Below, piece after piece: positions 273 to 63,462 of a DNA stretch of 64,000 nucleotides. The first letter of the stretch is position 1, and each line of letters starts with the position of its first letter. The DNA comes from Candidatus Daviesbacteria bacterium (GTDB lineage Bacteria; Patescibacteriota; Microgenomatia; Daviesbacterales; UBA10151), in the NCBI GenBank assembly GCA_016184225.1, contig JACPDA010000004.1:6800-70799 (forward strand), given 5' to 3'. The notes below the pieces were generated by a model. That model was not told the DNA's origin and made no database searches. It was given only the letters and a program-made list of their open reading frames with translations. A program made the position numbers and the translations under genes.

Positions 273-834
273 TACCACTCTCGATCATATCAAACAGTTT
301 ATCTGGTATATAATCCTGTAAATCACCATACCTGTATACCTGCGGCGTATAACCAGCAGGATTTATTTTGTACGACAGATGGGCTTGAATCACTTTTCTT
401 GTGCCTGGCCTAATACCCAAATCTCCTACAGGAGCATTCAACACATCCTCAAATCTAGTCCACCCCAAGTCTGCAACTTCTTGCGACTCTGAACCGATTA
501 TTACATCTACATCCGGGGAAACTTCTAGCACTGATGCATGAAGAATCACTCCAGATCTTAATTCACATAAACAAAGTCTCGTAACTGCTCTAGGATCATA
601 CCTGAAGTTTTTAATCTGGATTTCCTCTCTTGTCAGTCTCTCAAAAGTCTGTGCATACTCTTCTCCGGGTTTAACCGTCTCCATGGGCAGAGTTAACATT
701 CCAGCTACTTTATGTGTAGATCTTTTACTCGTCAACTCTCTTAGCGTCAAAAATCCCCGACCAGGATCCTCAGGAACAACAATTAATGCACCCACACCTG
801 CGACTCTTCCCTCTAGCCCTTCTGTTCTGATCAT
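151..834 (-). CDS. hypothetical protein with a weak dUTPase/dCTP-deaminase-like segment (LRSGVILHASVLEV...DVDVIIG); the C-terminus overlaps the convergent kinase gene
   Basis: Long ORF whose start overlaps the idi stop (ATGA-type overlap). I recognise no firm motif, so the real start and the C-terminal extent are uncertain. Confidence 0.35.
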   Translation of the reverse strand: MIRTEGLEGRVAGVGALIVVPEDPGRGFLTLRELTSKRSTHKVAGMLTLPMETVKPGEEYAQTFERLTREEIQIKNFRYDPRAVTRLCLCELRSGVILHASVLEVSPDVDVIIGSESQEVADLGWTRFEDVLNAPVGDLGIRPGTRKVIQAHLSYKINPAGYTPQVYRYGDLQDYIPDKLFDMIESGISLEEALFRLKLASTPAARSLLLAHSQSLQVHPLDHAEAK

Positions 835-1370
835 GCTTTAAAGAACCTTTCTTTTTTTAACAGTTCAACTGATTTGATTGCCCAAGGAGAATAATTTTTA
901 GGATGAGCTTCAATATCTTTCAAAAATTCCTGCATATCCACCCATTTGTAGCCATAACCTACCGCCAGGTTTAACTTAAACTGGCCGTTATACTCCCCGA
1001 TCAAAAGATAGCAATGCTCGTTCTCGCAAAGCCCATCGTATTTAGCAAAGTAATTAAATGCTCCCAGATTTTTTAATGTAATATTATCTATATCATACTC
1101 TACTTTAAGGCATCGTTGTGTTGCTTCTTCTAAAGTTTCATCAGTATTATTTCCCCTGTGCAGCGGATGAGTAGCTCCTGTCACATCCCAAATATTATCA
1201 AAAACCTGGTGTTTCCTTTTTTGCAGTAAAACTTGTCCTTTGTAGTTGTAAAGCAGCACAGCAATGGCCAGATGCCGCCTACCTTTTCCGGTATGACCTA
1301 CTTTTTTGGGAATATACTTACCACTAAATACACCTGCCCCATTGCAGGCTAAAATTAACTGATCGTCCAT
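831..1370 (-). CDS. idi: isopentenyl-diphosphate delta-isomerase type 1 (Nudix-fold IDI)
   Basis: HLAIAVLLYN...LLQKRKHQVFDNIWDVTGATHP and a Cys/Glu-containing core resemble type-1 IPP isomerase. The size of about 180 aa also fits. Confidence 0.6.
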   Translation of the reverse strand: MDDQLILACNGAGVFSGKYIPKKVGHTGKGRRHLAIAVLLYNYKGQVLLQKRKHQVFDNIWDVTGATHPLHRGNNTDETLEEATQRCLKVEYDIDNITLKNLGAFNYFAKYDGLCENEHCYLLIGEYNGQFKLNLAVGYGYKWVDMQEFLKDIEAHPKNYSPWAIKSVELLKKERFFKA

Positions 1371-1423
1371 ATCTACCTGTATATAATTAGTCGGGAGAAA
1401 CCCTAAAACCCCACGAAGTTTTT

Positions 1424-1673
1424 AAGAAATAACCTTAAGCTCTCTTCCAACTTTAGCAAAAGCCGCAATACCAAGATCCAAATCTTTTTTATCGTGGGCT
1501 GCAGAAGGTATCACACGAACTCTATCTTTTCCTTTGGCAACCATGGGGAAAACAATCGGTGTGGCAAAAACATCCAGCTCAAAAAGTTTAGCGCTAAACT
1601 CCCTGGCTAAATTCTCATCACCTAACACCACCGGAGTAATTGGAGTCTGAGAATGACCAGTATCAAATCCCAA
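1424..1673 (-). pseudogene. truncated duplicate of the kbl 3' end (about 250 bp, roughly 90 percent identical to 5384-5633)
   Basis: The ORF 1422..1673 translates to [14 protein letters not shown]...[14 protein letters not shown], nearly identical to the last 83 aa of the Kbl-like protein at 5382..6581. The nucleotide alignment is visible by eye. No upstream part of the gene is present here. Confidence 0.8.
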
Positions 1674-1782
1674 TTTCTGAAACTAAGGATGTCGGAAAAG
1701 TGAAAGTAAAGCTTAAAGCATTAGACTTCGTCAAGGACATCATTGTAAATATTCCCGGAGAAGGTGCTAGGCTCTCACAAAA

Positions 1783-2067
1783 TCACCTTTTTGAAGTTTC
1801 CGAGTGAAGACAAGTAGAAGCTGGTTCCTTGCATTTAGAACAGGTTTTCTCGCTCTCACCTGTTCTTGCAGGACCACTAAAATAAATTGTGCCTACGGGT
1901 AATTTTTCTTTTTTGAGTAATTCTTTAATACTTTCAACGACCAACACTCTTCCAGAAGTCTGCGGCCTGCAAGGAGCGCAAGAACCGGCAAAAGGACAAC
2001 CTTCACACCCGCTTCTTGCCCGCATAGCCTTAACAGAACCTCTTTTCAGTATTTCAACTGCCGCCAT
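1783..2067 (-). CDS. small Cys-rich Fe-S-cluster-domain protein (RnfB N-terminal-like; motif CEGCPFAGSCAPC followed by SGRVLVVESIKELL)
   Basis: A C-x2-C-x5-C-x2-C motif, followed by a segment resembling the GGEAVMLKIAELL region of RnfB N-termini. It is transcribed divergently from pflB. Confidence 0.45.
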   Translation of the reverse strand: MAAVEILKRGSVKAMRARSGCEGCPFAGSCAPCRPQTSGRVLVVESIKELLKKEKLPVGTIYFSGPARTGESEKTCSKCKEPASTCLHSETSKR

Positions 2068-2135
2068 AAACTGATATTATAACTCATCTCCAAAAATAGT
2101 GCCCCTATTTGAGCTAAAGATGATATACTCAGCAA

Positions 2136-4361
2136 ATGAACAAAGTTTTCCAAAAGGGTGAATGGGAAAAGGTAATCGATGTCAGAGATTTTTTATACCA
2201 CAACTTAATCCCCTACAGCGGAGGCGCAGAATTCTTAAAAGGCCCCTCAGAAAAAACCAAAAAGCTTTGGGATATTTGTAAAAATCTGCTTAAAAAAGAA
2301 GCTGCAGCAGGCGGAGTTTTAGATATTGACACCAAAACAATTGCAACTGCTGTCAGCCACAAACCAGGCTATATTAAAAAAGATCTTGAGCTTATTGTTG
2401 GTTTACAGACAAATGAGCCATTAAAAAGAGCTATAAAGCCCTACGGAGGCATCCAGGTGGTTGAGCAAGCCTGTGAGGACTACGGCAAAAAACTTGACCC
2501 AAAGGTAAAAAAGCTTTTTACTACATACCTAAAAAGCCACAATCAGGCTATATTTGATGCTTACACAGAAGAAATCAGAAAATACCGCTCAAGCGGCGTA
2601 ATTACAGGCTTGCCCGATAACTACGCCAGGGGCAGAATTATCGGTGACTACCGCCGGGTAACTTTATACGGCATAGACCGTTTAATTGAAGAAAAGAAAA
2701 AAGACCATGCCGGAAAAACAGGTTCCATGACAGATACGGAAATCAGGGAGCGCGAAGAAATTGGCGAAGAAATTCATGCCCTGGATTTAATTAAGGAGAT
2801 GGCTGCCTCATATGGCTTTGATTTAAGCAAACCGGCTCAAAATGCCAAGGAAGCAATCCAGTGGACTTATTTTGCCTACCTGGCAGCCTTAAAGGAGCAA
2901 GACGGCGCAGCTATCAGTCTAGGCTCTGTCAGCGGGTTTTTTGATATTTATATTGAAAAAGATATTGCCGAAGGAAACTTAACGCAGGAACAGGCCCAAG
3001 AGCTTATTGACCAGTTTATTATTAAACTGCGCCTGGTCAGACAGCTACGTATGAAAGAATATGACCAAATCTATGCCGGCGACCCAACCTGGTTGACTGA
3101 AAGCTTAGCCGGGATGTTTTTGGACGGCCGCCATAAGGTTACCAAAACCTCTTACAGGTTTCTGCAGTCGCTGTATAACCTTGGCGCCGCTCCCGAACCA
3201 AACATCACAGTGCTTTGGTCTGAAAAACTGTCGCAGAAGTTTAAGGAATTTTGCGCCAAGGTCTCTATAGATACATCTTCAATCCAATATGAAAATGACG
3301 ACTTAATGAGGGAAATTGCCAATTTTGATGATTACGGCATTTCCTGCTGCGTATCCCAACAAAAAATGGGATCGCAAATGCAGTATTTTGGCGCCCGGTC
3401 CAACCTCCCTAAAGTTTTGCTTTTGGCTCTAAACCAGGGCAAAGATGAAAATGCAGCTGTAGTTTTGGTACCGGGGATCAGTCCCCAACCAGAAAGAGCT
3501 TTGGATTTTAACAAGGTCATGGCAGAGTACAAAAAAACTCTTAGCTATGTAGTAAAAGTGTATGTAAATGCCATGAATATTATTCACTACATGCATGACA
3601 AGTATTATTTCGAACGGGTACAAATGGCTTTGCTGGACACTGACTTAGACAGATTAATGGCCTTTGGTATTGCCGGCTTATCAGTTGTGGCAGATTCCCT
3701 GTCTGCCATTAAATACGCCAAAGTAACACCTATCCGGGATGAAGATGGAATCACGAAAGACTTTGTTATAGAGGGGGATTTTCCAAAATACGGCAATGAC
3801 GATGACAGAGTTGATAACATTGCAAAAGAATTGGTTGACAGTTTCAATGAAGAACTAAAAAAACACCAAATCTACCGGGGCGCCAAGCCAACTTTGTCTG
3901 TACTGACAATTACCTCAAACGTGATGTACGGCAAAAAAACCGGCGCCACTCCTGATGGCAGAGCCAGCGGCGAACCTTTTGCCCCTGGTGCTAACCCCAT
4001 GCATGGCCGCGACAGCCGGGGCGCCATTGCCTCCTTAAATTCCGTAGCCAAAATTGATTATAAAAGTGCCAGGGATGGTGTTTCCAATACCTTTTCCATT
4101 GTTCCCCGGGCATTAGGCGCTACTAAAGAGGAACAAACCGATAACCTAGTGGCTTTAATTGATGGTTATTTTCATAAAAAGGCTCAACATCTAAATGTTA
4201 ATGTCCTAAACCGGGAAACCTTGCTTCGGGCTATGGCCCATCCTGAAGAATACCCCCAACTCACCATCAGAGTCTCAGGATATGCTGTTAATTTTGTTAA
4301 ACTCTCCCGCGAACACCAACAGGAAGTTCTGGCCAGAACCTTCTTTGAGTCAATGAAGTGA
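2136..4361 (+). CDS. pflB: pyruvate formate-lyase (formate C-acetyltransferase), glycyl-radical enzyme
   Basis: Collinear with E. coli PflB along the whole length. The glycyl radical motif RVSGYAVNF lies near the C-terminus and the active-site CCVS-type cysteines (ISCCVSQ) are present. Confidence 0.95.
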
Positions 4362-4365
4362 CGTT

Positions 4366-4445
4366 TTACGTCATCCTGAACTTGATTCAGGATCCATACA
4401 ATTATTTATATAGCTCCCCCGATTAAATCGGGGGATGACAAAGAA
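4366..4445 (+). promoter_or_regulatory. two stable stem-loops in the pflB-pflA intercistronic spacer
   Basis: gtcatcctgaacttgattcaggatcc and tcccccgattaaatcgggggat are both perfect hairpins. No T-tract follows them, so this is more likely an mRNA processing or stability element than a terminator. Confidence 0.4.
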
Positions 4446-4450
4446 AAATT

Positions 4451-5176
4451 ATGCTGCAAGTTCACTCCATTGAAACATTCGGCACCCACGAGGGACCGGG
4501 CATCAGGCTGGTTATCTTCATGCAGGGGTGCAATTTCCGCTGCCTGTATTGTCATAACCCCGATACCCGTTCTTTAAAAGGCGGCACAAAAATGAGTTCC
4601 GAAGAAATCATTGAGCTTTTAAAAAAGCAAAAGCCTTATTTTAAAGATACAGGGGGTCTGACTGTTTCCGGCGGAGAATCCCTGCTGCAAAGGAAAGCTT
4701 TACTTGATCTTTTTACCAAAGCCAAAAAGCTAGGTTTCAATACTACCCTGGACACCAATGGTTCTATTCTTGATGATGATACCAAAAAACTTCTAGAAGT
4801 AACTGATTTGGTATTACTGGATGTTAAACACATCGACCCGGTCTGGCATCAGACAGTTACCAGCGCTTCTAATGAACCAACGCTTAGGTTTGCCAAATAT
4901 CTGAAAGAAATCAATAAGTCAATGTGGCTACGCTATGTTTTAGTCCCCGGCTACACTAACCAAAAAGAATTCTTAGAAAAATGGGGTGCCCATTTTAAGG
5001 ATTATAAAAACATTGACAGGGTAGAAATTCTACCCTTCCATACCTATGGATTTTACAAATACAAAGAACTAGGCATTGAAAACCCGCTGTCAGATTGTCC
5101 TGTTCCTACTGAAAAAGAAATTCAGGAAGCTCTGACTATTTTCGAGAAATACTTCAAATCAGTATATGTCAGATAA
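4451..5176 (+). CDS. pflA: pyruvate formate-lyase activating enzyme (radical SAM)
   Basis: CNFRCLYCHNPDT radical-SAM cluster motif. The 241-aa size and the position immediately after pflB match. Confidence 0.93.
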   Translation: MLQVHSIETFGTHEGPGIRLVIFMQGCNFRCLYCHNPDTRSLKGGTKMSSEEIIELLKKQKPYFKDTGGLTVSGGESLLQRKALLDLFTKAKKLGFNTTLDTNGSILDDDTKKLLEVTDLVLLDVKHIDPVWHQTVTSASNEPTLRFAKYLKEINKSMWLRYVLVPGYTNQKEFLEKWGAHFKDYKNIDRVEILPFHTYGFYKYKELGIENPLSDCPVPTEKEIQEALTIFEKYFKSVYVR

Positions 5177-5381
5177 ACCCCACGGCCCTAACCCGTATGA
5201 TACAATATAGTCATGGAAAATATGGATAATGGCCCAGTTGCCATAATTAAAAAGATTGCTAATCCATTCCGTAGGAATGGTGAAAGATCGAAAATCCCTT
5301 CCACCCCCGATCTTTCAGACCATCAGCCGACTCTACAAGAGCCGGGGATTTTAGGTGACTTTCTCAAAAGCGAATATCCAC

Positions 5382-6581
5382 CTAAGAAATAACCTTAAGC
5401 TCTCTTCCAACTTTAGCAAAAGCTGCAATGCCAAGATCCAAATCTTTTTTATCATGGGCTGCAGAGGGTATCACACGAACTCTATCTTTTCCCTTGGGAA
5501 CCATGGGGAAAACAATCGGTGTGGCAAAAACATCCAATTCAAAAAGCTTGGCGCTAAACTGCCTGGCTAAATTCTCATCAGGTAGCATCACCGGAGTAAT
5601 TGGTGTCTGGGAGTGGCCGGTATCAAATCCTAACTTTTTAAACTCTTCCCGTAGGTAATTAGTATTATCCCACAGCTTCTTAACCAGCTCATCTGATTCT
5701 TCCAGAATTTTAACTCCTTCCAAAACTGCGGCTGTATCCGCAATTGTTAAAGCATTTGAAAATAAAAATTGCCTGGCTTTTTGCTTGTAAAAATTAATCA
5801 AGGTGGCTTTCCCGGTGATAAAGCCACCCATCACAGAAAAAGCTTTGGACAGTGTCCCCATTTCAATATCCACCTGCCCATGAAGATTAAAATGATCAAC
5901 AATACCCCGGCCGCCTTTACCCAATACCCCTTCCCCATGTGCATCATCAACCATAGTTAAAACCCCATACTTTTTAGCCAGTTCCACAATTTGCGGCAGC
6001 GGCGCTAAATCTCCATCCATAGAAAAAACACCATCTGTCACAATTAAAATTACAGGCTCCTCTCCATTCTCTTTTGGGGTCTTTTGCAACTCCACCGCCT
6101 CTTTAAGCCGCTCTTCCAGCTCACCCATATCCAAATGTTTGTAGATAAACTTATTTTTAACCTGGGACAGCCGGATCGCATCAATAATAGAAGCATGGTT
6201 TAGCTCATCGGAGATCACAATATCTTCTTTGCCAATAATGGTAGCAATGGCCGCGCAATTGGCCATGTAGCCGCCGGTTAAGACAATAGCCGCCTCAGCT
6301 CCCTTAAACCGGGCTAGAGCTTCTTCCAGTTGAACATGCAAGGTATGAGTACCTGCCAGAGTCCGGTAACCTGTGCCGATACCGTATTTATCCACTGCCT
6401 CTTTGACAGCTTCTTTTAGTCTATCATCTACAGCCAACCCTAAATAATGGCTGGAGCAAAAATTCAGTTTTTTCTTCCCATTAATGGTAAGGTACGCCCC
6501 TTCCCCTGATTCAATCACATAAGGAATTTTGCCACTTTTCACTGCTTCTGCAAGATTGCGATAGAAGTCCGTAGTATTCAT
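5382..6581 (-). CDS. kbl: 2-amino-3-ketobutyrate CoA ligase (glycine C-acetyltransferase), PLP-dependent family
   Basis: The fold-type I aminotransferase class II signature (AONS/Kbl family) is present. It sits in an operon with a threonine dehydrogenase. Confidence 0.85.
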
Positions 6582-7600: not shown

Positions 7601-7732
7601 AAATAATCTTGGGCTATAAGATTACCATGATAGCATTGAAAAGCTCGTTACACAAGAGGATAGGCTGTTATTCCTGCAGCTGCCCAGGGGGTATATCTTT
7701 TGGGAAAACCGCTAAAATAATTTGGCTATCAC

Positions 7733-9284: not shown

Positions 9285-9450
9285 AAGAATGGAAACTTTT
9301 AGAAGCAGCGAAATCACAAGTAAACAAAAAATGTTGAGGATTTTGTGCTAACTGCCCCCATGCCATCAGATTAATGGTATCCACAAAATACTCACAAGCG
9401 AGCAAGTCTCTACTGTGCGAGCGATTTTTTGTACTGTGACGAGCTGCTTA
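9285..9450. repeat. intergenic repeat module of about 150 bp, copy 1 (related to 35915-36062; partial copy at 10812-10850)
   Basis: Shared blocks aaaaaatgttgaggattttgtgc ... ccacaaaat.ctcacaag.gagcaagt ... gtgcgagcgattttttg ... gacgagctgc. The module contains a conserved 12-bp stem (gaggattttgtg / cacaaaat.ctc). Confidence 0.6.
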
Positions 9451-12932: not shown

Positions 12933-13283
12933 TTGACTTATAGATTATACACCTGCTATAAATGGTTCATGATTGAGCGGGTCGGAGGTGTAATCAAAAA
13001 AGCAATAGAGCCACTTGTTAGGGTTGAAACCCAAACCTATGAAACTGCTGTTGCAAATCGCCTTGGCAGAATCGAACAGACAGAGACAAGGCGAGAATCT
13101 CTTATAGAAGAAAGTGTAAAAGGACAACCGAGAACAAGTGCTTATACCGAAGTTAGCGACGCCGCACTAGATTGGCTACACGCAACAAGCAGTGGTCTTG
13201 TGGCCGAAAGAAAAGCCATCTTATTAGGTCGCTTCGTCCTCAATTTACCATCTTACACATACTCGTGGCGTAACGCTAATTAA
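12933..13283 (+). CDS. hypothetical ORF in a 400-bp spacer; coding status doubtful
   Basis: Only the ORF track supports it; I recognise no motif. The region could equally be noncoding regulatory DNA or RNA. Confidence 0.2.
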   Translation: MTYRLYTCYKWFMIERVGGVIKKAIEPLVRVETQTYETAVANRLGRIEQTETRRESLIEESVKGQPRTSAYTEVSDAALDWLHATSSGLVAERKAILLGRFVLNLPSYTYSWRNAN

Positions 13284-35892: not shown

Positions 35893-35914
35893 CTTTAAGT
35901 ATTATACCTTCTAA

Positions 35915-36062
35915 AAGGCAACGAAGTCTAAGCCAGTCAAAAAATGTTGAGGATTTTGTGCGAATTGTCTCAATGATAAAAGACCAAAATCCTCCACAAA
36001 ATTCTCACAAGTGAGCAAGTTCCAACCGTGCGAGCGATTTTTTGCGGCCAGACGAGCTGCTT
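35915..36062. repeat. intergenic repeat module of about 150 bp, copy 2 (see 9285-9450)
   Basis: Same conserved blocks and the same 12-bp stem, with one compensatory-looking difference. Confidence 0.6.
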
Positions 36063-36883
36063 TATACACTCTTTGCTGCCTCTATCAACTCCTCAAAGCT
36101 TAATTTAGTGGGTTTGGAATCCGGAGCAGAGGAAGAGCCGCAAATTACCATATGATGGCTTTGGTGCAGAAACCAGGTAGCCCCCGGATCTAAGGCTTTA
36201 ACTTTTTCATAAATTGGCTTTAAATCAATCTCAAAAGAAGGGGTAAAAAATTGGACCGAGTGGTATTTGGGATTATACATCAAAAAAAGATTTCCCCCCT
36301 GCTGCCGGCAAAACTCCCGGTCTACTGTTTCAGAAATAACGGCAAAGCTCTTCCCAAATTTAGTTTGAAATTCTATTCTTTTTTCCCAATCCTTTATACT
36401 TTGCTCTCTTCTTTTTAAGACCTTCAAGATCCTCTCCAGTATTTCCATTCCCAGCTCAACTGACTTGCCGGAAGTTTGTGAAGAATTATCCCGGCTCCTG
36501 ATAAAAGCCTGGACAGAAAACTCATCAAACTGGCTATCCGGGGCTTTGCCGGTATCTACTAATAGGTTCCACTGAGTCAGCTTGTCTAAAGCTTTCCGGG
36601 TAATTTCATCTGCCGGAATATAGTTTTTTTCTTTTAAATACTCATAAACTAAAGTGCCGGCACAAGTATCCAAGCCTTCTTTATGTTCATCAAACCTACC
36701 TCCGCCTGTGCCTACAAAAACTTTATCCTTCGACTCGCTTTGTTCGCTCAGGACTCCCGCTTCGCGGGAGGCTGAAATAAACTCCAACTTGGCATCTTTA
36801 AAATCCGGATGGAACTTTTTAAACAGCCAAATACAGGCAATATCATCTAAGTGCGGGTTGATGTGAGTGACTAAAATTTTCAT
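36062..36883 (-). CDS. UPF0160/MYG1-like metal-dependent hydrolase (tentative)
   Basis: N-terminal THINPHLDDIACIWLF and GTGGGRFDEHKEG resemble the MYG1 family His/Asp motifs. Confidence 0.45.
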   Translation of the reverse strand: MKILVTHINPHLDDIACIWLFKKFHPDFKDAKLEFISASREAGVLSEQSESKDKVFVGTGGGRFDEHKEGLDTCAGTLVYEYLKEKNYIPADEITRKALDKLTQWNLLVDTGKAPDSQFDEFSVQAFIRSRDNSSQTSGKSVELGMEILERILKVLKRREQSIKDWEKRIEFQTKFGKSFAVISETVDREFCRQQGGNLFLMYNPKYHSVQFFTPSFEIDLKPIYEKVKALDPGATWFLHQSHHMVICGSSSAPDSKPTKLSFEELIEAAKSV

Positions 36884-36903: not shown

Positions 36904-37698
36904 ATGGCTATAGCCAAAAAACTTATTCTTGCCCCTTTATTTCTAATTGTTTTTGCTTTGCTTGTCTCTCAACTGAGCCCTTTTTTAAAATCCTATGATT
37001 TTATTTTTTCACTGTCGATCAACACCTTGATAACACTATTAGTTTTGTCTTTTTATGTCTTGATCTCATGCTTTCTGTTTGTACTATTTGCCACACTGGC
37101 TCAGAACTTCAAAATAATCTTGCCAATAGCTTTTTTATCTGCTTTAATACCTCTGCTTTTTCTGGAATCAGCCTTAGCCTTAGTACTAGCTGTCGCCATA
37201 TTTGTCAGTTTTTTGCTCACTTTTTTATCCCTGGCCAATTCTTTAAAAAGTTATTTGACTTTTAAACCAGAAGCTCTACTCGGTCCTGCTATCAGGAGTC
37301 TGGCTGGCTTCTTGATTGCAGCAGTCTGTCTGGTCTACTTTTTATCTGCCAATAAAATTGTGGCTGAAAAAGGCTTTCAAATTCCCGATTCTTTAATTGA
37401 TACTGCACTGCAGTTGAGCACATCTTCGCTACCTAGCGTCCAACCAGAACAAGCCAGTTTATCCCAAGATCTTATCAAGCAAACTGTCAAAGACCAAATA
37501 CAAACTTTTATTAAGCCCTATATCAACTTCATCCCCGCCGGCCTGGCTCTACTGCTATTTCTAACTCTCCAGTCTCTAACTTCCATCCTCAATCTTCTAA
37601 TCTATCCCCTGCTTTGGATCACTTTCGCTATTTTGGAAAGAACAGGATTTGTGAAGTTTGAGGTCGAACAAAGACCGGTCAAAAAACTTGTTGTTTAG
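36904..37698 (+). CDS. polytopic membrane protein, hypothetical
   Basis: Six or more TM helices. Its last 75 bp are duplicated at 38253-38328. Confidence 0.55.
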   Translation: MAIAKKLILAPLFLIVFALLVSQLSPFLKSYDFIFSLSINTLITLLVLSFYVLISCFLFVLFATLAQNFKIILPIAFLSALIPLLFLESALALVLAVAIFVSFLLTFLSLANSLKSYLTFKPEALLGPAIRSLAGFLIAAVCLVYFLSANKIVAEKGFQIPDSLIDTALQLSTSSLPSVQPEQASLSQDLIKQTVKDQIQTFIKPYINFIPAGLALLLFLTLQSLTSILNLLIYPLLWITFAILERTGFVKFEVEQRPVKKLVV

Positions 37699-37700
37699 AT
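37625..37700. repeat. direct repeat A (3' end of the membrane-protein gene)
   Basis: ttggaaagaacaggattt.t.a.gtttgaggtcgaacaaagaccggt.aa.aaact.gt.gtttagat recurs at 38253-38328. The two copies flank the DUF4258/zinc-finger TA pair. Confidence 0.8.
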
Positions 37701-37703
37701 CAA

Positions 37704-37940
37704 CTATTGCCAGTTGAAGACAGGAACTTCAAGAATCTGTCTGGGTTTTTGATCTTTAGAAGTCTTTTTAACTAAATTATCAAGCCTCTTTGAAACTTCA
37801 GCTGAATAATATCTCTCACCACATTGAGTACATACTTCAACCGGCACATTTTTGACAACATATAACTTATCGCCCCACCTAAAGTCGACATCGATATTTT
37901 TTATTCTGGTAGCTCCTTTACAAAAATAGCATTTATTCAC
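37704..37940 (-). CDS. YgiT/MqsA-type zinc-finger antitoxin-like protein
   Basis: CYFC...CTQCGE zinc ribbon (TIGR03831-like), about 78 aa. It overlaps the upstream DUF4258-like gene. Confidence 0.65.
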   Translation of the reverse strand: MNKCYFCKGATRIKNIDVDFRWGDKLYVVKNVPVEVCTQCGERYYSAEVSKRLDNLVKKTSKDQKPRQILEVPVFNWQ

Positions 37941-38241
37941 GATTTTTTAACTCCTTTGCTCTTGTTTTCCAATTGACCCAAGCTGGCAGTTTTGGTCTGT
38001 AAACTGTCACAACCAGCAATCTCTCCCCTCTAAATCCACAAACAACATGCAATGTTTTACTTACTACTAAACAGCTTGAACCTCTTGGATCTTTTGGATA
38101 CTTTTCTATTATACTACCTTTTAAAATAGTTTTCTCTATTTCCTCAATAATAATTTGTTCATCCTGGCGCTCAGAATGAGCATGAGCTGAAAGATCATAT
38201 TCCTGTGATCTAATTTTCCGCCTGATGAGTTTAATATCCAT
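37933..38241 (-). CDS. DUF4258-like toxin component (tentative)
   Basis: About 100 aa, with its stop overlapping the zinc-finger partner's start. The pairing of these two families is a known TA architecture. Confidence 0.55.
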   Translation of the reverse strand: MDIKLIRRKIRSQEYDLSAHAHSERQDEQIIIEEIEKTILKGSIIEKYPKDPRGSSCLVVSKTLHVVCGFRGERLLVVTVYRPKLPAWVNWKTRAKELKNRE

Positions 38242-38252
38242 CTACATCTAGT

Positions 38253-38328
38253 TTAGCATTATTGGAAAGAACAGGATTTATTAGGTTTGAGGTCGAACAA
38301 AGACCGGTTAAGAAACTGGTGGTTTAGA
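38253..38328. repeat. direct repeat B (duplicate of the 37625-37700 segment)
   Basis: See repeat A. Confidence 0.8.
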
Positions 38329-39078
38329 TTCAACAGCTAAACCAACTAAACTCTGTAGGTCGATTCTACGAGAAAACGATCCTGCAGTAAACTCATAATA
38401 TTGTTTGAAAAAAAATGCTACATGCTCACCTCTGACTAAAAAAGATAAAGGATACCATCCTTGTTCGTCCAGGTTCAATTGAACAAATGCAGCTTTTGTT
38501 TCGGGAGAAGAATCAGACTCAACCATAATCATTTCATAACGAGGCCTTTCTCGACAGGTATAGGCACGAACAAGACTTGATCCTTTAGCTTCAACTATCC
38601 TCCTTACTGCATCCATCGTCTTAGGTGATGTTTGATCTGGTTCTACAAACAAACTTATCCCGAAATCTTCCTTTTTCTTGCCTTCTATGATTTTCAAAAC
38701 CGGCTTTGTGGCCATAATCTGAACCATTGTGTCGCCCACAACTAAAACACTCTGTTGCGCTTGTTCCAGTAATTCGCCAATCTTCTGTGGGTGTCGAGGA
38801 GGGGCACAAAACTCCATATCCGGATTTAAACCTAGTTGAAGAAGCCCAACGCTAAGTGCCTTCAGTGTTATCTTGCTTCTATGCGCCTCCTCGCGTAGTA
38901 GTTTATGTATAGAAGATGGAACACCAATCGTCATTACTACGGGTATATCCCACCCTCCTGTTTGTGTTTCTGTCATTGGCCGTAAATATATCACAAAGGA
39001 AGTTAAATGTGAAGCGGCTTCATTTCTCCCCAGTTGGCTAAGTATCAAATTGGTACTACCCAAAAAGCAACACCACAA
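38308..39078 (-). CDS. hypothetical protein with an N-terminal ribbon-helix-helix-like segment fused to an unknown 190-aa domain
   Basis: MTIGVPSSIHKLLREEAHRSKITLKALSVGLLQLG looks like an RHH DNA-binding motif. The remainder is unrecognised. Confidence 0.45.
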   Translation of the reverse strand: MWCCFLGSTNLILSQLGRNEAASHLTSFVIYLRPMTETQTGGWDIPVVMTIGVPSSIHKLLREEAHRSKITLKALSVGLLQLGLNPDMEFCAPPRHPQKIGELLEQAQQSVLVVGDTMVQIMATKPVLKIIEGKKKEDFGISLFVEPDQTSPKTMDAVRRIVEAKGSSLVRAYTCRERPRYEMIMVESDSSPETKAAFVQLNLDEQGWYPLSFLVRGEHVAFFFKQYYEFTAGSFSRRIDLQSLVGLAVESKPPVS

Positions 39079-39641
39079 AACTTATTGGGCTTATTATAAC
39101 TCCAGTCAGAGACGCTCGGACCCTTACCAGCAACAAAACGACCGACCGTGGCAAAACGGGTACGTGGGTTATTTGTTGGAGTGCATGTTATTATAGTAGG
39201 AAGCTCACCATCAGACTGATCCTTATAATCTTCACCAAGCAAGCGGATTTTTTCTTGATCAAAATACCAAAACAGCACCCCTGTAGCTTCTGAGGCCTGA
39301 GGCCTCCGAATAGTTACCCCCTCCAAACCCGGTCTCCTTCTTAGTTTTTCTGCTTCCTGTTCAATCAATATATCCTGTTCATCTCTAGTTTTATTAAAAG
39401 AATTAGGAATAAAAAATTTGTTTGAAGCAGGGTAAAAGGCCACCTCAACCAGTCTTGACCTAAAGCCACCCAATATACATCCTGCATTAGCTGTATACTC
39501 GACACGTTTCCCTGCCTCCATCTGGTCTTTTATCGTCTGCCCTTCGGGAAGATGTGTTACAGCCCCAGCATTCCTTAAAATATCCCTCTGCCGATCGTTG
39601 AAGGTTTTTACTAAAGCTAAATCGGATCCTACCTCAATCAT
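39045..39641 (-). CDS. hypothetical protein; upstream partner of the RHH-fusion gene (overlapping by 34 nt)
   Basis: ORF with plausible coding composition and FR...S...EQE spacing reminiscent of small ADP-ribosyltransferase toxins, but this is unproven. Confidence 0.45.
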   Translation of the reverse strand: MIEVGSDLALVKTFNDRQRDILRNAGAVTHLPEGQTIKDQMEAGKRVEYTANAGCILGGFRSRLVEVAFYPASNKFFIPNSFNKTRDEQDILIEQEAEKLRRRPGLEGVTIRRPQASEATGVLFWYFDQEKIRLLGEDYKDQSDGELPTIITCTPTNNPRTRFATVGRFVAGKGPSVSDWSYNKPNKFCGVAFWVVPI

Positions 39642-39675: not shown

Positions 39676-41889
39676 TCAAGGATTTAATAGTTTCATTTCT
39701 CCCCAGTTCTTACCAACTTTGAGGTCAACTATGACAGGCACTGAAAGTTTGAGAGCATTTTCCATTTTTTCTTTCACCATTTTCCCCACTTCGCGAACGC
39801 TTCGCGGGGTGCATTCAAACAAAAGCTCATCATGAACCTGGAGAATAAGTGAACAGTGCTGAGTGCTAAGTGCTAAGTCCTTTTTCCCACTTTGCACTTT
39901 TCCCTTTGCACTTAACACTTTCCCAATCTCCACCATGGCCTTTTTAATCATATCAGCCGCCGTGCCTTGGACCGGATGGTTGACTGCAGCTCGCTCCCCG
40001 GCTGCCCTGATCATCCGATTCCCCACTTTTAACTCCGGAATATACCTTTTCCTGCCCCAAATGGTCTCCACAAAACCGTTCTCATAGCCAAATGCCAAAG
40101 TATCTTCCGTCCATTTCCTGACTTTGGGAAATTCGGCAAAATACTCATCAATATACTGGCGGGCCAACTCATATGGCACTTCCAGTTGGCGGGAGAGCGC
40201 ATGCGGCCCCTGGCCATAAAGGGTGGCAAAATTCATGGTTTTACCCACCATCCGCTGCTCTCTTGTCACCTTTTCCAAAGAGACATTAAAGATTTTTGAA
40301 GCAGTTAAGGCATGAATATCTACTCCTTCCTTAAAAGCTTTTTTCAAACCCGGGTCATCTGCCAAATGGGCCATAATCCGCAGTTCAATCTGTGAGTAAT
40401 CAGCTGTTAGCAACACCTTACCTTTGGGGGCCACAAATGCTTTCCGAATTTCTCCTCCGGCCTCGCCTTTAATGGGAATATTTTGTAAATTAGGGTCTTT
40501 GGAAGAAAGCCTGCCGGTAGCAGCCCCTTCTACATTAAAAGTGGAATGGATCCTACCGGTGCTATCTACAAATTTAGGCAGGGCATCAATATAGGTGGAA
40601 ACCAGCTTAAATAATTGCCGGTATTCCAGCATCAGTGGCACTGCCGGATGGGTTAGCGCTAACTCACGCAGGGTGGCTTCATCAGTGGAACGGCCGGTTT
40701 TGGTTTTTCTCACCACCGGCAGCTTTAGCTCATCAAACAGCACTTCTGACAACTGCTTTGGGCTGTTCAGATTGAACTGATGTCCTACTTTTGAGTAAAT
40801 CTCCTTTTCAATCTTGGCTAATCTGGCTTTTAGCTGTTTGCCAAACCTGCTTAAAAACTTCAGGTCAATTAATACCCCGGCCTCTGACATTCTTTTAAGA
40901 ACAGGCTCTACCTGATGATCCAAATCTGCTGTTTGCTGGTTTTGTGTCATTCTGGCTTGTCCAGAATCCTCTTCTTTAGATTCTGGAGTCCTCACTGCGT
41001 TCGTCCCCAGAATGACATTTTGGGAACCGGAAACCCTGGCTATCAAACTTTTGAATTCGAGTTCTTCAAACAACTTAACCACTTTTTCTTTATCAAAATC
41101 GTGCACTATACATTCTTTCAAATTAAGCTTAATTGGTGCTTTTAAATCCAAAGTAGCCAGTCTTTTGCTCATCACGGCAGATTCTGCCCCCTCGGAAAGC
41201 AGTGTTTGCATCCTCTCCGGCAAGGTTTTCAGATTTTCAGATTTGTAAATATTTTCAACTGAACCAAACTGGTGAATCAATTTAGTGGCTGTGACATCAC
41301 CAATTCCCGGCACCCCGGGAATATTATCCGAGGCATCCCCGGAGAGCCCTTTATAATCAGTTAATTGTTTTGGGAAAAAGCCATATTTGGCCACAAACTC
41401 CTCCAGTCCATATAATCCTACATCTGCCAGGGTTTTTTTGGGCATAAACACCTTAACTTTCTTATCAATCAGCTGCATGATATCCCGATCCCCGGTCACA
41501 ATAATAGTTTCCAAATCCGTTTCTTTCTCTGTTTGCTTTGCCAAGGTTCCGATTAAATCATCTGCCTCATAACCTGCCAGCTTAAACTCCGGAATATTAA
41601 AAGCTTTAGTTATCTCATGCACCCTTTTGTATTGACCGGATAAACCCTCATCAGTGGCAGTCCGGGTGGCTTTATACTGGGTATAAGCTTGATGCCGGAA
41701 AGTCGGACCCTTTTCATCCCAGGCAATAGCCAAATACCGCGGGTGCAGCTCCGAAATCACCCTTAAAACCATGGAGGAAAAGCCGTATACGGCATTGACC
41801 AACTCACCCGAGGAGGTAGTAAAAGGCGGTGTGGCATGATAGGCTCGGTGCAACAGGGCATTCCCATCCACTAATACTAAACGTTTCAT
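39676..41889 (-). CDS. polA: DNA polymerase I (5'-3' exonuclease plus polymerase domains; short, 737 aa)
   Basis: 5' nuclease motifs at the N-terminus and polymerase motifs A, B and C at the C-terminus. A MITE-like element and a heptamer-repeat block are inserted in frame in the inter-domain region. Confidence 0.9.
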   Translation of the reverse strand: MKRLVLVDGNALLHRAYHATPPFTTSSGELVNAVYGFSSMVLRVISELHPRYLAIAWDEKGPTFRHQAYTQYKATRTATDEGLSGQYKRVHEITKAFNIPEFKLAGYEADDLIGTLAKQTEKETDLETIIVTGDRDIMQLIDKKVKVFMPKKTLADVGLYGLEEFVAKYGFFPKQLTDYKGLSGDASDNIPGVPGIGDVTATKLIHQFGSVENIYKSENLKTLPERMQTLLSEGAESAVMSKRLATLDLKAPIKLNLKECIVHDFDKEKVVKLFEELEFKSLIARVSGSQNVILGTNAVRTPESKEEDSGQARMTQNQQTADLDHQVEPVLKRMSEAGVLIDLKFLSRFGKQLKARLAKIEKEIYSKVGHQFNLNSPKQLSEVLFDELKLPVVRKTKTGRSTDEATLRELALTHPAVPLMLEYRQLFKLVSTYIDALPKFVDSTGRIHSTFNVEGAATGRLSSKDPNLQNIPIKGEAGGEIRKAFVAPKGKVLLTADYSQIELRIMAHLADDPGLKKAFKEGVDIHALTASKIFNVSLEKVTREQRMVGKTMNFATLYGQGPHALSRQLEVPYELARQYIDEYFAEFPKVRKWTEDTLAFGYENGFVETIWGRKRYIPELKVGNRMIRAAGERAAVNHPVQGTAADMIKKAMVEIGKVLSAKGKVQSGKKDLALSTQHCSLILQVHDELLFECTPRSVREVGKMVKEKMENALKLSVPVIVDLKVGKNWGEMKLLNP
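40945..41017. repeat. MITE-like element, in frame in the polA linker
   Basis: TGTCATTCTGGCTTGTCCAGAATC...CCCCAGAATGACA encodes ...TPESKEEDSGQARMTQNQQ... Confidence 0.75.
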
Positions 41890-47100: not shown

Positions 47101-47159
47101 ACTTTAAATTCTACCATAGCTAGCCCGAAGTTTTCTTCTTCCCGACTATTTTCTCAAGC

Positions 47160-47546
47160 TCATCCGGTTCTAAATTCCTTAGCCAACTTTAAGTCAAAAG
47201 TTCTAAACGATTTTACATTCTGCTCCCTTGCAAAAGTAAGATTATAACAATCTTCTAAGCTTAAGTTCGCTTCGGCAAATAAATGGACGCTACTAACTAA
47301 CAATTGATGTTTATCAAATTCAATATTCAATTTTAGCAATTTGTCCAAAATTTCTACCAATGTTTGTTTATCTTTTCCATAAGTTGAGCGCAACACCCAA
47401 AAGACTTCGAAAAACACCACTGTTGAGCTTATAAGTTCTTCCTCTCCTTTTCCAGCCAGCAGGAAAAGATTTTTTGCTTCTTGGTATTGACTCCCAATAT
47501 CCTTTAGGAGAAATCGCAAAAAATAGTTGGTGTCAACGAAAATCAT
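47160..47546 (-). CDS. vapC: PIN-domain toxin VapC
   Basis: MIFVDTNYFLRFL start and conserved acidic residues of the PIN fold. Confidence 0.8.
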   Translation of the reverse strand: MIFVDTNYFLRFLLKDIGSQYQEAKNLFLLAGKGEEELISSTVVFFEVFWVLRSTYGKDKQTLVEILDKLLKLNIEFDKHQLLVSSVHLFAEANLSLEDCYNLTFAREQNVKSFRTFDLKLAKEFRTG

Positions 47547-47803
47547 TTCAGTCGGTATTTTTCTTTAAAATATTCATCTTTGGCTTGCTCCACAATCCGG
47601 TCAATGCTTGCGCCTTTCCACCTTTTTGGCATAGGCACAGACCCTGCCAACTCCTCCACTAATCTCTCGGCGGGAGTGAGTACTAATCTGCCATTTTCTT
47701 CGGAAACAATGACCTTTTGGCCTATTCTTAAACCCGCTTTGCGAAAAAGCTCAGCTGGCAAAGTAAGTTGTTTCTTGCTGGTAATAGTGGCTAACTGATT
47801 CAT
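47543..47803 (-). CDS. vapB: AbrB/MazE-type antitoxin VapB
   Basis: SpoVT/AbrB-like looped-hinge-helix N-terminus. It overlaps the vapC start. Confidence 0.7.
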   Translation of the reverse strand: MNQLATITSKKQLTLPAELFRKAGLRIGQKVIVSEENGRLVLTPAERLVEELAGSVPMPKRWKGASIDRIVEQAKDEYFKEKYRLK

Positions 47804-47856: not shown

Positions 47857-49701
47857 CTAATTTTTCTTCTTCCCCACAATTTTTTCAAACTCATCTGATT
47901 CCAGAGTTTCTTTTTCGAGAAGCTCTTTAGCCACAGCATCCAGCTTGACTTTATGCTTTCTTAATAAATCCTGGGCGTTTTTATAGCAGGAATCCATTAT
48001 TTTCTTCATTTCCGCATCCACCGCATCGTGCATCTTGGGTGAAAGTTCAGATCCTTCATCCATCCCCCGCCAAATTCCAAACATCGACCTGGGATTAACA
48101 CTGATCGGTCCCAAGCTTGACATACCATATTGAGTCACCATGGCCCTGGCAATACTCATGGCCACCTCAATATCAGATGCTGCCCCAGTGGAAATATCTT
48201 TGAAAATTAAATCCTCTGATGCCTGGCCGCCTAAAGCTGCTGTGATTTGGTCAACTAAACGCGACCTGCTCTCGTTTGACCGGTCTTCTGTAGGTGGAAA
48301 CAAGGTGTGGCCGCCGGACATACCTCTGGAAACAATGGAAATACGATGTACCGGATCAACATTTTTTAAGAAATGCCCGACTATTGCATGGCCTGCCTCA
48401 TGATATGCGGCCAATTTACGATCTTGTTCAGACTGCATCCTTTTCCTTTGCGGCCCTAACTTCTCTTTAGTGGCTGCCTCTTCCAGATCTTTACTATCTA
48501 TAGCCTTCTTCCCTTCGCGAGCGGCGAGGATAGCCGCTTCGTTTAACATATTGGCCAAATCCGCTCCGGAGAATCCAACAGTCCGCCGGGCCAGTTTTTC
48601 TGTTGAAACATCTTTGGTGAAGGGCTTGCCTTTCATATGCAATTCAATAATGGCTTTTCGCTCTGTCAAATCAGGCAGGCTTAAAACCACTCTTCTATCA
48701 AAACGGCCGGGCCTGATTAAGGCAGCATCCAATAAATCAGGTCTGTTGGTCGCTGCCAGAATTATTACCCGTTCATTAGGGGTAAAACCATCCATCTCCA
48801 CCAAAATTTGATTTAAGGTTTGTTCACGCTCGTCATGTCCGCCGGAAATACCCATGCCGCGCTGCCGACCGATTGATTCAATCTCGTCTACGAAAATAAT
48901 GGCCGGAGCAGCTTTCTTGGCTTGAGCAAACATATCCCTGACTCTGGCTGCACCCACTCCCACTAACATTTCCATAAATTCCGACCCAGCAATGGAAAAA
49001 AACGGCACTCCGGCTTCCCCGGCCACTGCTCTTGAAATTAAAGTTTTCCCTGTTCCGGCAGGCCCTACCAATAACACTCCTTTAGGAATTCTTGCCCCTA
49101 ATGCCTTAAATTTATCCGGGGTTTTAAGAAATTCCACTATTTCGGACAGCTCGCGCTTAGCTTCCTCTGCGCCTGCTACATCAGTAAATTTAATCTGCGG
49201 AGAATCTTTGGTAAAAAGCCGGGCTCGGGATTGAGCAAAAGAGAAAATTCCCTGGCCTGCCTCCCGGGCATTGCGGAAAAGAAAGATCATAAGACCGACC
49301 AAAATTAAAATAGGTAAAACTGCAGATAATATTCCTATCCAAGCTTGCTGCAATGACAAATCCTTAACTTCAATAGTCACGGATTTGGGGTCAACCCCGG
49401 AAGATTCCAGAATCTTATAGATAGACTCACCGGCTTCTTTATGAGAGGTGAGTTTCTGATCAGAATCTTTTACCTCGGCGGTTATTTTATCTCCTTCAAG
49501 GGAGATTTTTTCAATTTTTCCGTCTTTGGTATCAGTGATAATTTGCGAGATCGGCACCTCACTGCCAGAAGTAGTAGGCCCGCCGGAGACTTGATAGAAG
49601 AAAATCAACGCAGCCAAAGCAATTAAAATATAGATGACCAAACCCCTGACAACAGCCCAAACTTTCTTATTTACATTAATCTTCCTTTTACCATTTGCCA
49701 T
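47857..49701 (-). CDS. ftsH: ATP-dependent zinc metalloprotease FtsH
   Basis: Walker A GPAGTGKT, second region of homology, and the HEAGHA zinc motif. Confidence 0.93.
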
Positions 49702-62562: not shown

Positions 62563-63462
62563 TTGACAAATATGACCTATAACATTAAGATACACACTAT
62601 GATTACTTTACGCGATGCACACCAGCAATTTATAGGTCACCTAAAAAACAAATCCAGAGCTTCTGCTACTATCTTAGCCTATGGCAAAGACATTGAGCAA
62701 CTGGTTAATTTTCTGCGAGACCAGGGTAAAACTGACCCTATTACAGTGGAAACTGTTGATCTTTCTGCCTTCATGCAAAAACTGGCAGATGAACATTATA
62801 CCCCGAAATCAATATCGCGAAAAACCAACTCCACCAAAACCTTTTTTAAATTCTTAAAAACTTCCAATTTGATCACTAATGATTCAGCTACCGGCTTGGA
62901 CCATCCTAAATTCGAAAATAAACCACCCAGGATTTTAACCAAACTGGAATACAGAAGCTTGCGGGATGCCTCCAGAGGAGATCTCCGAATGTCTGCTGTC
63001 ATAGAAATACTCCTTCAAACCGGAATTAGGATTGGTGAATTGGCCAAGCTTCGTGTAGAAGATATCAACCTGGAAAATCTCACCCTGCATGTTCCCCTAT
63101 TTGAAGATACTAGGGAAAGAATAATCCCTTTAAATAAACCTGCAGCTGAAGCCGTTAAAAATTACCTTCCCCATCGGGCTAAAACAGCTAACCATGCCTT
63201 GTTTGTGACCAAAACCGGCCGCCCACTCCTCATTAGGAATATCAGAACTGCTATTGATAGATACTTTAGGGTAGCAGGGATTAAAGATGCCAAGTTGAAT
63301 GATTTAAGGCATACTTGGGTGGCTTTTCAGCTGCAAGCCGGAGTACCTATGACTATGGTGTCCAAGTTAGCCGGTCACAAAAGGCTTTCCACCACTGAAA
63401 AATACCTGCAATTTATCACCGGCCAAAACGGTGAAACTAAAGTCAAATTAGAAGAGCTGTAA
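62563..63462 (+). CDS. tyrosine site-specific recombinase (XerC/XerD-like)
   Basis: Core-binding N-domain and catalytic R...HxxR...Y residues (LRHTWVAFQL..., GHKRLSTTEKYL). Confidence 0.8.
   Translation: MTNMTYNIKIHTMITLRDAHQQFIGHLKNKSRASATILAYGKDIEQLVNFLRDQGKTDPITVETVDLSAFMQKLADEHYTPKSISRKTNSTKTFFKFLKTSNLITNDSATGLDHPKFENKPPRILTKLEYRSLRDASRGDLRMSAVIEILLQTGIRIGELAKLRVEDINLENLTLHVPLFEDTRERIIPLNKPAAEAVKNYLPHRAKTANHALFVTKTGRPLLIRNIRTAIDRYFRVAGIKDAKLNDLRHTWVAFQLQAGVPMTMVSKLAGHKRLSTTEKYLQFITGQNGETKVKLEEL

Follow-up and report, generated by a model that had tools for sequence, protein, structure and literature searches.

Repeats around a DUF4258/YgiT toxin-antitoxin pair in a Candidatus Daviesbacteria genome as probable gene-end scars of homology-anchored gene gain

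This analysis concerns a small toxin-antitoxin (TA) pair, a DUF4258 toxin and a YgiT-type zinc finger antitoxin, in a 64-kb stretch of DNA (the window) from a Candidatus Daviesbacteria metagenome-assembled genome. The pair lies immediately behind a conserved membrane protein gene, which we call gene M (HYU45_00380), and it is bracketed by two copies of the 3' end of that gene: repeat A, the live end, and repeat B, an orphaned end or scar on the far side of the pair. On balance, we think it probable that repeat B was left by a homology-anchored gene gain that is independent of a recombinase, either similar to homology-facilitated illegitimate recombination (HFIR) or by a single crossover. The repeat is present in independent assemblies, empty sites occur in relatives, the same pattern recurs at many genes, the scars behave as alleles and no recombinase is linked to the pattern in the window.

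Repeats A and B are 78 nt long and align without gaps at 85.9% identity (E 3.9e-18; repeat search and blastn self-comparison of the window), and a TAG stop codon terminates both of them in the same register. The original prediction, made from the letters of the window alone, had described a TA pair flanked by direct repeats and had taken repeat A to be the true end of the gene at 36904..37698. The first point holds in 10 independent contigs, and the second agrees with the open reading frame (ORF) and the repeat search. If a 1-nt indel is allowed, the similarity extends 6-7 nt beyond the stop (ATCAAC / ATTCAAC), and with this extension repeat A reaches 37704, where it touches the stop codon of the antitoxin gene. 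A slightly diverged copy had also been predicted just after the TA pair. The copy is there, but its first ~8 nt (38252-38259, TTTAGCAT) are the reverse complement of the cassette-edge motif ATGCTAAACT and belong to the cassette, so that the M-derived part of B is ~38260-38329. This part encodes LERTGFIRFEVEQRPVKKLVV and the stop, i.e. about the last 21 codons of M, and it differs from A at seven positions, ~4.5-5 of which are synonymous depending on the counting path, plus the replacements V>I and K>R.

Gene M matched no family when Pfam and NCBIfam were searched. It has more than 330 homologues, in which the C-terminal peptide ..ILE[KR]TGF[VI][KR]FEVEQRPVKKLVV is highly conserved, and despite the adjoining cargo, gene M itself is of full length with a family-typical C-terminus. 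Ten contigs, the products of independent assemblies of different runs, match the window with 100% identity over all of the junctions, and this means that the bracket structure is real and fixed in the sampled population. A chimeric assembly of two strain alleles was also considered, and the agreement of the independent assemblies rules it out. A scan flagged a terminator-like hairpin, ACCGGTTAAGAAACTGGT with a T-rich tail (38303-38320, + strand), inside repeat B; the matching stretch of A was not flagged.

The toxin gene is the first one in the pair and overlaps the antitoxin gene by 8 nt. The toxin matches the Pfam family DUF4258 with 63.6 bits (gathering score 25, E 2e-17), and the antitoxin matches TIGR03831 (YgiT_finger) with 52.6 bits (cutoff 20.2). 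Against the MqsA family TIGR03830, the antitoxin scores 22.6 bits (cutoff 61.8), and the Pfam MqsA match is likewise sub-threshold; the full MqsA model is not reached because the antitoxin is a protein of 78 amino acids (aa) that lacks a helix-turn-helix (HTH). DUF4258 proteins have a BECR fold of the RelE/ParE superfamily and DUF4258-MqsA fusions are on record; their activity and target are stated to be experimentally unknown (PMC11980606). The edge motif presumably acts as the promoter of the pair; it was seen only by the comparison of contexts, and a simple sigma-70 -35/-10 scan flagged no promoter for the pair. The toxin and antitoxin genes are the only ones between A and B, and the neighbouring genes X and Y198 have no family. 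A transposon model was tried and rejected, because no inverted repeats, which a DNA transposon should have, were found at the cassette ends, and because the repeat has 78 nt here and a variable length elsewhere. The best explanation is that the DUF4258/YgiT pair is passenger cargo, with a minimal unit that runs from the -10-like motif to the antitoxin stop codon, rather than the agent of the insertion.

To place the bracket in context, 49 related M loci were fetched for comparison. The gene order GT4(-) L273(-) M(+) ... PolA(-) is kept across the loci, i.e. M and the DNA polymerase I gene (PolA) converge on one junction. This junction is empty in five loci (L022, L023, L030, L058 and L059), where the stop codons of M and PolA are -11 to +2 nt apart and M has a single 3' end; an empty site of this kind is what the original prediction had proposed to look for. 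In ~25 other Daviesbacteria loci, the M-PolA gap is 0.1-3.1 kb long and its content is genome-specific, including PIN/AbrB pairs, HicAB, a BrnT-like pair, DUF4258+DUF2283, a recurrent four-helix-bundle gene and large ORFs. The toxin, the antitoxin, X and Y198 of the window are in none of these ~25 gap-bearing loci, and X is missing from the hot spots of all of the relatives. The empty or differing junctions in the relatives imply that the whole 1977-nt M-PolA stretch of the window is accessory cargo in a hot spot. A picture in which no empty site exists and repeat B is conserved as the coding sequence of another gene is not what we found, and the sequence comparisons support the interpretation of the cassette as an insertion.

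Several of the relatives have scars of their own at this hot spot. M scars are present in L024 (51 nt, 88%), L025/L076 (39-87 nt, behind the BrnT-like pair) and L050 (72 nt), in addition to the one of ~70-78 nt in the window, and PolA scars are present in L033 (34 nt, 94%), L035, L037 and L064. The PolA scars have lengths of 17, 18, 19, 34, 38, 24-36 and 85 nt; for both genes, decay could blur the boundaries. Some of the scars are serial. For example, L037 has two PolA scars plus the live end, with HicAB after the first and DUF4258+DUF2283 and a 264-aa ORF after the second, and in L064 two orphaned PolA ends and the live one, three copies in all, stand in series. A 75-nt copy of the PolA 5' end in L026 has 85% DNA identity, and 25 of its 25 encoded residues are identical. 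In a scan of 445 kb of sampled Daviesbacteria/Patescibacteria DNA, which is enriched for hot spots, 30 nearby direct-repeat pairs were detected; ~12 of them are gene-end scars, 10 at 3' ends and two at 5' ends, and they involve at least eight genes. The recurrence of the pattern, which had been predicted from the window, is thus confirmed.

The same hot spot provided some additional observations. One four-helix-bundle gene (..LASQLRRASKSAPANIAEGWAKRRF..) is present in the M|PolA hot spot of at least four lineages, and we take it to resemble the 23S-rRNA intervening-sequence proteins. In L037, a 121-nt direct repeat with 95% identity (10990-11110 / 13015-13135) consists of two DUF2283-like genes. 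In L019 (9227-12737), PolA is matched in three pieces (aa 1-286, 317-664 and 641-735) that are separated by ~140 nt and 1.2 kb, and the last piece is only 64% identical; PolA may be interrupted there or carry a displaced 3' part.

The original prediction considered repeat B to be copied from the neighbouring gene, with a long target duplication as one possibility. The differences between live ends and scars, compared codon by codon, argue against such a copy. The aminotransferase pair of the window has 18 synonymous and six non-synonymous differences (pN/pS 0.10), the M pair has ~4.5-6 and 2.5-5, with replacements that are conservative and family-typical (V>I, K>R), and the FtsH pair has four and three. 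When 12 scars are pooled, 59 synonymous differences stand against 34 non-synonymous ones (pN/pS 0.16), and neutrality is rejected (P 2e-18). The pooled scars also reject an in-situ duplication with constraint on the live copy and neutral decay of the scar (P 1.7e-9).

The aminotransferase is the best-powered case. With three outgroups, 24 differences can be polarised; 15 are on the live lineage (12 synonymous) and nine on the scar lineage (six synonymous). The in-situ model expects 76% of the changes on the scar, and the 9/24 observed there are at odds with it (P 5e-5). For M and FtsH, the ends in relatives are roughly as far from the live end as from the scar. The aminotransferase relatives have the same near-equidistance at the protein level; at the DNA level, the informative sites are 15 vs 9 and the polarity is not significant. 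Because the polarity comparison could not tell which copy is native, the outgroup comparison was used as a rate test. For M and the aminotransferase, the live end and the scar are each other's closest relatives, which suggests that donor and recipient are sister lineages. The synonymous-biased differences and the smaller number of changes on the scar lineage imply that the extra copy was a working gene end in another lineage until recently. Judged by these substitutions, the scars appear to be alleles from sister lineages and not in-situ target duplications.

The M bracket had been described as the second example in the window. The recurrence within the window holds, but the count was too low, as there are four gene-end brackets: aminotransferase, M, FtsH and PolA. 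In the three longer ones, the repeat ends 0-2 nt from the stop codon of the anchor gene. The PolA 17-mer is internal, with its live copy 16-32 nt upstream of the PolA stop, and it is of the same type as the PolA scars in L033, L035, L037 and L064. The order in the window is M / TA / M-scar / X / PolA-scar / Y198 / PolA, i.e. the scars are serial. The last seven codons of gene X extend into repeat B, and X is best explained as older cargo.

The other two brackets also have counterparts in relatives. The aminotransferase bracket contains pyruvate formate-lyase (PFL) cargo, which is absent beside the aminotransferase in L079-L083, and in L081-L083, without PFL, there is a 4-nt overlap between the aminotransferase stop and the convergent MVD gene. 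The genes g214 and FtsH are adjacent, i.e. the site is empty, in L022/23/24/34, and a homologous VapBC is located directly after FtsH in L027 and L030; L027 has its own FtsH scar. No recombinase was found in or adjoining the four brackets of the window, and the sole one in the 64 kb is an Xer-type gene at 62563..63462. This gene had been proposed as a candidate actor. However, it is a generic Xer-type gene 24 kb away and no motif is shared between it and the brackets; with nothing to connect it to them, it was rejected as the actor. Site-specific integration at gene 3' termini, as originally suggested, also fits poorly with at least eight target genes, with both 5' and 3' ends, with variable lengths, with either orientation and with the lack of a recombinase at the cargo.

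Beyond the aminotransferase scar there is a NUDIX gene (831..1370), which is homologous (60-63%) to the NUDIX genes at L079 5410-5943 and L081 1185-1712. In the relatives, NUDIX sits upstream of ADH-aminotransferase, and that position is empty in the window (132-nt gap, 7601-7732). This placement indicates that the PFL insertion is not the only difference in gene order at the aminotransferase bracket.

The toxin family has 44 members with 62-79% identity, mostly from Daviesbacteria and other Patescibacteria, and seven cassette contexts were sampled from it. The toxin/antitoxin pair with its 8-nt overlap is kept in 7/7 contexts, and in all seven the cassette homology starts at TATG[C/A]TAAACT, 8-9 nt before the toxin ATG, and stops at the antitoxin stop codon. 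The search for the same cassette with other flanking duplications, which had been proposed as a check, was successful at UvrB (L045/L042), PolA (L064) and tRNA-Leu (L040). In L045-47 and L042, the pair is between UvrA and UvrB, and the right copy of the repeat is the live UvrB 3' end; the UvrB repeat has 76 nt, 89% identity and a 58-nt perfect core in L045, and 40 nt in L042. L064 has the pair on the PolA side of the M|PolA hot spot, between two copies of the PolA 3' end that form an 85-nt repeat with 86% identity. In L040, only 3 nt separate the end of an intact tRNA-Leu from the cassette, a diverged copy of the tRNA 3' arm, which by eye (it was not folded) appears to retain T-stem-like pairing, follows the antitoxin, and a large serine recombinase is 2.4 kb away. 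In L048, the antitoxin is followed by an orphan remnant of the PolA C-terminus (..NWGEMKL..), although PolA is not adjacent. In L041, an IS1595 transposase neighbours the pair and no flanking repeat was found. Relative to M and UvrB the cassette is convergent, and relative to PolA and tRNA-Leu it is co-directional. L048 also has a 177-nt, 80% direct repeat (185-361 / 4658-4834) made up of the 3' ends of two ORFs, one of them cut by the contig end. The 4.3 kb between its copies hold the DUF4258 pair and the orphan PolA remnant together with a second TA-like pair and a pilin-like gene, and the repeat may be a larger, nested bracket of this kind.

We suggest the following scenario. In the ancestral state, M and the convergent PolA would have abutted, and their junction would have become a hot spot that collects accessory cargo. 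DNA arriving from a diverged sister lineage would have consisted of a conserved gene end followed by cargo. One of its ends would be anchored by homology inside the conserved flanking gene, and the other would be joined without homology, some tens of bases into the same gene's resident copy. This could occur by HFIR of a linear fragment or, equivalently, by a single homologous crossover of a circularised fragment of gene end plus cargo. The conserved gene would stay whole because the incoming DNA brings its own intact gene end, and one of the two allelic ends would be left stranded on the far side of the cargo. Repeated rounds would stack cargo and scars from both sides, as may be the case in the window, L064 and L037. 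Where convergent genes abut within 2 nt, nearly every other join would destroy a gene, and this would account for the location of the surviving events at gene ends.

Both the recombination pathway and the entry of the DNA by natural competence are things that we infer. The junction between cassette edge and scar has a short, imperfect and weak similarity (TTTAGCAT vs TTTCGCTAT), which may be of the kind used in illegitimate joins. An arrangement like that expected of a donor is present for FtsH, in that VapBC is directly behind FtsH in L027 and L030. Competence and homologous-recombination genes are reported from Patescibacteria, and Saccharibacteria are experimentally transformable (PMC10633639, PMC12455944). 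HFIR has been proposed for analogous orphaned gene ends in type VI secretion system (T6SS) and Rhs arrays (PMC5361080).

Several points weigh against this scenario. None of the 10 contigs with the exact M or toxin protein is an empty-site or excision variant, i.e. the window's own population provided none. The synonymous bias of the M pair alone is marginal (P ~0.02-0.06), and for M and the aminotransferase the incoming copy could not be told apart from the resident one. The DUF4258 pair is directly after M in 0/49 M loci, the closest case being L064, on the PolA side. The 58-nt perfect core of the L045 UvrB repeat fits a recent true duplication or gene conversion equally well. In five contexts (window, L042, L045, L064 and L040), the non-homologous junction is 0-15 nt from the functional edge of the cassette, i.e. 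closer than expected of random illegitimate joins unless superfluous DNA is trimmed by later deletions. The scenario leaves the first arrival of the cassette at each new anchor gene unexplained, and HFIR is rare where it has been measured (PMC5361080).

Other explanations have to be weighed against the same observations. A tyrosine or serine recombinase could act in trans on a non-autonomous mini-element, similar to the cis-mobilizable elements (CIMEs), whose attP carries a replacement gene end; the diverged repeats would then be attL and attR. Integrative elements at the 3' ends of tRNA and protein genes do carry replacement ends, which would fit the allelic, synonymous-biased divergence, and the tight junctions, the Xer-type recombinase in the window and the classic tRNA-Leu 3' end of L040 with its serine recombinase nearby are all consistent with this view. 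However, no recombinase is within or adjoining the four window brackets or most of the others, and the one in the distant part of the window is of a generic XerA/C/D type that scores under all of the equivalog cutoffs. In addition, there are at least eight target genes, including a 5' end, the cargo includes ordinary metabolic genes (PFL), and one cassette occurs in both orientations across its sites at M, UvrB, PolA and tRNA-Leu. The scar length also varies at one gene (39-87 nt for M and 17-85 nt for PolA), implying that there is no fixed crossover core. We therefore regard this explanation as unlikely. A true insertion with long target duplication, in which some process doubles a stretch of 20-260 bp in the resident target and the two versions then diverge in place, seems very unlikely. 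Against it, the pooled differences reject a neutrally decaying scar, the polarised aminotransferase changes are fewer and enriched in synonymous ones on the scar lineage, the L026 copy differs synonymously only, and the tRNA-arm copy of L040 appears by eye to retain T-stem-like pairing. In its favour are the direct repeats of more than 30 bp with a single copy at the empty site and no mobility gene (PMC2853133), the fact that A and B are mutual closest relatives, the perfect L045 core and window PolA 17-mer, and the similar repeat lengths (~70-85 nt) of the same TA family at three genes. From the sequences at hand, target duplication is disfavoured for the aminotransferase and L026, and it is still a candidate for L045 and for the M pair taken alone.

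Finally, the TA cassette, from promoter to stop, could itself be a discrete mobile unit that is moved to conserved gene ends by an unrecognised dedicated mechanism, like an integron without a linked integrase. The constant homology edges in seven unrelated contexts suggest such a unit, as do the scars within 0-15 nt of the cassette edges, the four different anchor genes of one cassette family and the orphan PolA fragment that travels with the cassette in L048. However, flanks free of constraint could no longer be aligned between cassettes whose proteins are 62-79% identical; the sharp boundaries may thus mark only the limits of selection and were set aside as evidence of a mobile unit. There are no terminal inverted repeats, attC-like structures or a conserved 3' flank, and the same scars bracket the PFL operon, VapBC, the BrnT-like pair and genes without a family, all of them unrelated cargo, with HicAB between the PolA scars of L037, which implies that the phenomenon is not specific to the DUF4258 cassette. 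A dedicated unit of this kind is quite unlikely in our opinion, and it is just as doubtful that Patescibacteria have a dedicated cassette exchange by which conserved housekeeping genes receive minimal promoter-to-stop cassettes at their ends, each along with a replacement end. If they did, convergent junctions such as M|PolA would act like integrase-free integron platforms for TA/defence and metabolic cargo, and the gene-end alleles would be a readable record of donor lineage and acquisition order. Homology-anchored import from sister lineages remains the reading that we prefer.

The window has some other repeats that are separate from the brackets. A 145-nt direct repeat with 74% identity (9305-9449 / 35918-36062) has two intergenic copies 26 kb apart, the second of which is between the GT4 gene and L273 and overlaps a small ORF (35911..36069). 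An imperfect-palindrome element of ~90-130 nt, (AAGTGCA)n ... (CACTTAG)n, is present at 9831-9954, 20664-20759 and 39842-39926, with partial copies at 14117-14161 and 49970-50014; it is in frame within the coding regions of several minus-strand genes. The copy in PolA encodes ..SAKGKVQSGKKDLALSTQHCSL.. in a loop, and relatives have a different low-complexity insert there. Presumably the element is reminiscent of the Rickettsia palindromic elements. Further heptamer-repeat families in the window are D6, D9 and D12.

Table 1. Positions of the features discussed (window coordinates unless a locus is named)
Feature	Position	Strand	Description
Gene M	36904..37698	+	264-aa hydrophobic conserved Daviesbacteria membrane protein; one of two hot-spot anchors
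Repeat A	37623..37700	+	live M 3' end: last 24 codons + TAG + 2 nt
Antitoxin	37704..37940	-	78-aa YgiT-type zinc finger; MqsA N-terminal domain only; stop 5 nt from M stop
Toxin	37933..38241	-	102-aa DUF4258 protein
Cassette-edge motif ATGCTAAACT	38250..38259	-	extended -10-like, TGnTAAACT; 8 nt upstream of toxin ATG
Repeat B	38252..38329	+	orphaned M 3' end (scar)
Gene X	38308..39048	-	222-246 aa, no family; between M scar and PolA scar
PolA 3' scar	39019..39035	-	perfect 17-mer TTCATTTCTCCCCAGTT = 39692-39708, PolA codons NWGEMK; E 0.001
Gene Y198	39045..39641	-	198 aa, no family; cargo within PolA 17-mer pair
DNA polymerase I (PolA) gene	39676..41889	-	second, convergent hot-spot anchor
Aminotransferase 3' scar	1423..1684	-	262 nt, 91% to 5383-5644; open 86-codon frame + stop
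Aminotransferase-bracket cargo	1685..5381		three genes between scar and live end
Cys-rich ORF	1783..2067	-	94 aa; aminotransferase-bracket cargo
PFL-like glycyl-radical enzyme	2136..4361	+	aminotransferase-bracket cargo
Radical-SAM activase of PFL-like enzyme	4451..5176	+	aminotransferase-bracket cargo
Aminotransferase live 3' end	5383..5644	-	gene 5382..6581
FtsH 3' scar	47128..47170	-	43 nt, 84% to 47859-47901
FtsH-bracket cargo	47160..47803	-	AbrB/MazE-type antitoxin 47543..47803 + PIN toxin 47160..47546 (VapBC-type)
FtsH live 3' end	47859..47901	-	FtsH gene 47857..49701
Four-helix-bundle gene	L020 10995-11252; L025 9395-9757; L026 950-1312; L034 10979-11341

Gene gain is poorly understood in the ultra-small, streamlined genomes of the candidate phyla radiation (CPR)/Patescibacteria, where intergenic space is nearly absent and recognisable mobile elements are few. 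The scars would be a sequence-level signature of homology-anchored import from sister lineages into the junctions of conserved genes, and they are frequent (~12 in the 445 kb, a sample enriched for hot spots). Each scar preserves a gene-end allele and so could, in principle, tell which lineage was the donor and in what order cargo was acquired, and separate imported from resident DNA. Some of the long target duplications around addiction modules need not be duplications, which bears on the unexplained restriction-modification (RM) cases in competent bacteria. Annotation should avoid recording orphan gene ends as small ORFs or att sites.

The class of mechanism is already known, both as HFIR-type scars and as long flanking repeats around addiction modules. 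[quoted passage not shown] The allelic nature of the scars, their frequency and their occurrence at conserved junctions in CPR genomes were not found in the literature that we searched. The TA pair resembles the DUF4258/MqsA systems on record, with DUF4258 above the Pfam threshold and a partner that has the MqsA/YgiT zinc finger (PMC11980606); the antitoxin of the window differs in consisting of the 78-aa zinc finger domain only, without an HTH. Integrative elements and CIMEs also have direct repeats at gene 3' ends and supply an allelic replacement end, and one context, L040, is at a tRNA-Leu 3' end. However, the Daviesbacteria cargo has no integrase in or beside it and no fixed crossover at a given gene, and the scars involve many targets, including a 5' end, in either orientation.

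The RM systems whose insertion comes with long target duplication occur mostly in naturally competent bacteria, and their mechanism is unknown (Furuta, Abe & Kobayashi 2010, PMC2853133). They resemble the Daviesbacteria brackets in having a small addiction-type cargo without a mobility gene and long direct repeats of variable length (30 to >400 bp) that are single-copy at the empty site and may overlap gene 3' ends. In terms of the features used by Furuta et al. in 2010, the brackets have repeats of >30 bp that are single-copy at the empty site, and no mobile element is in or next to the insert. The origin of both copies from the resident target is where they part, given the pooled P of 1.7e-9 and the aminotransferase P of 5e-5; the M pair alone is marginal. 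The repeats of the RM systems are nearly identical to each other and less like the empty-site allele, as expected of a true duplication (PMC2853133), whereas the copies in Daviesbacteria have mostly synonymous differences and behave as alleles of two lineages. The cargo also differs, i.e. TA pairs, a PFL operon and genes without a family, and the host is a CPR bacterium.

Another close parallel is with the sequential displacement of T6SS effector-immunity, Rhs and contact-dependent inhibition (CDI) genes (Kirchberger et al. 2017, PMC5361080). There, too, new cargo is placed beside a conserved gene that acts as a homologous anchor on one side, older material and orphaned 3' regions are pushed downstream, and arrays form by repetition. 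However, the displaced pieces in those arrays are the variable toxin ends and immunity genes of one functional system, whereas the Daviesbacteria scars are short conserved ends of M, PolA, FtsH, UvrB, the aminotransferase and tRNA-Leu, and the cargo is unrelated to the anchor. Of the features expected of HFIR, the Daviesbacteria brackets have cargo beside an intact anchor, a displaced end kept beyond the cargo, serial arrays and copies that come from different lineages; a donor-type arrangement is present for VapBC at FtsH but was not found for the DUF4258 pair behind M.

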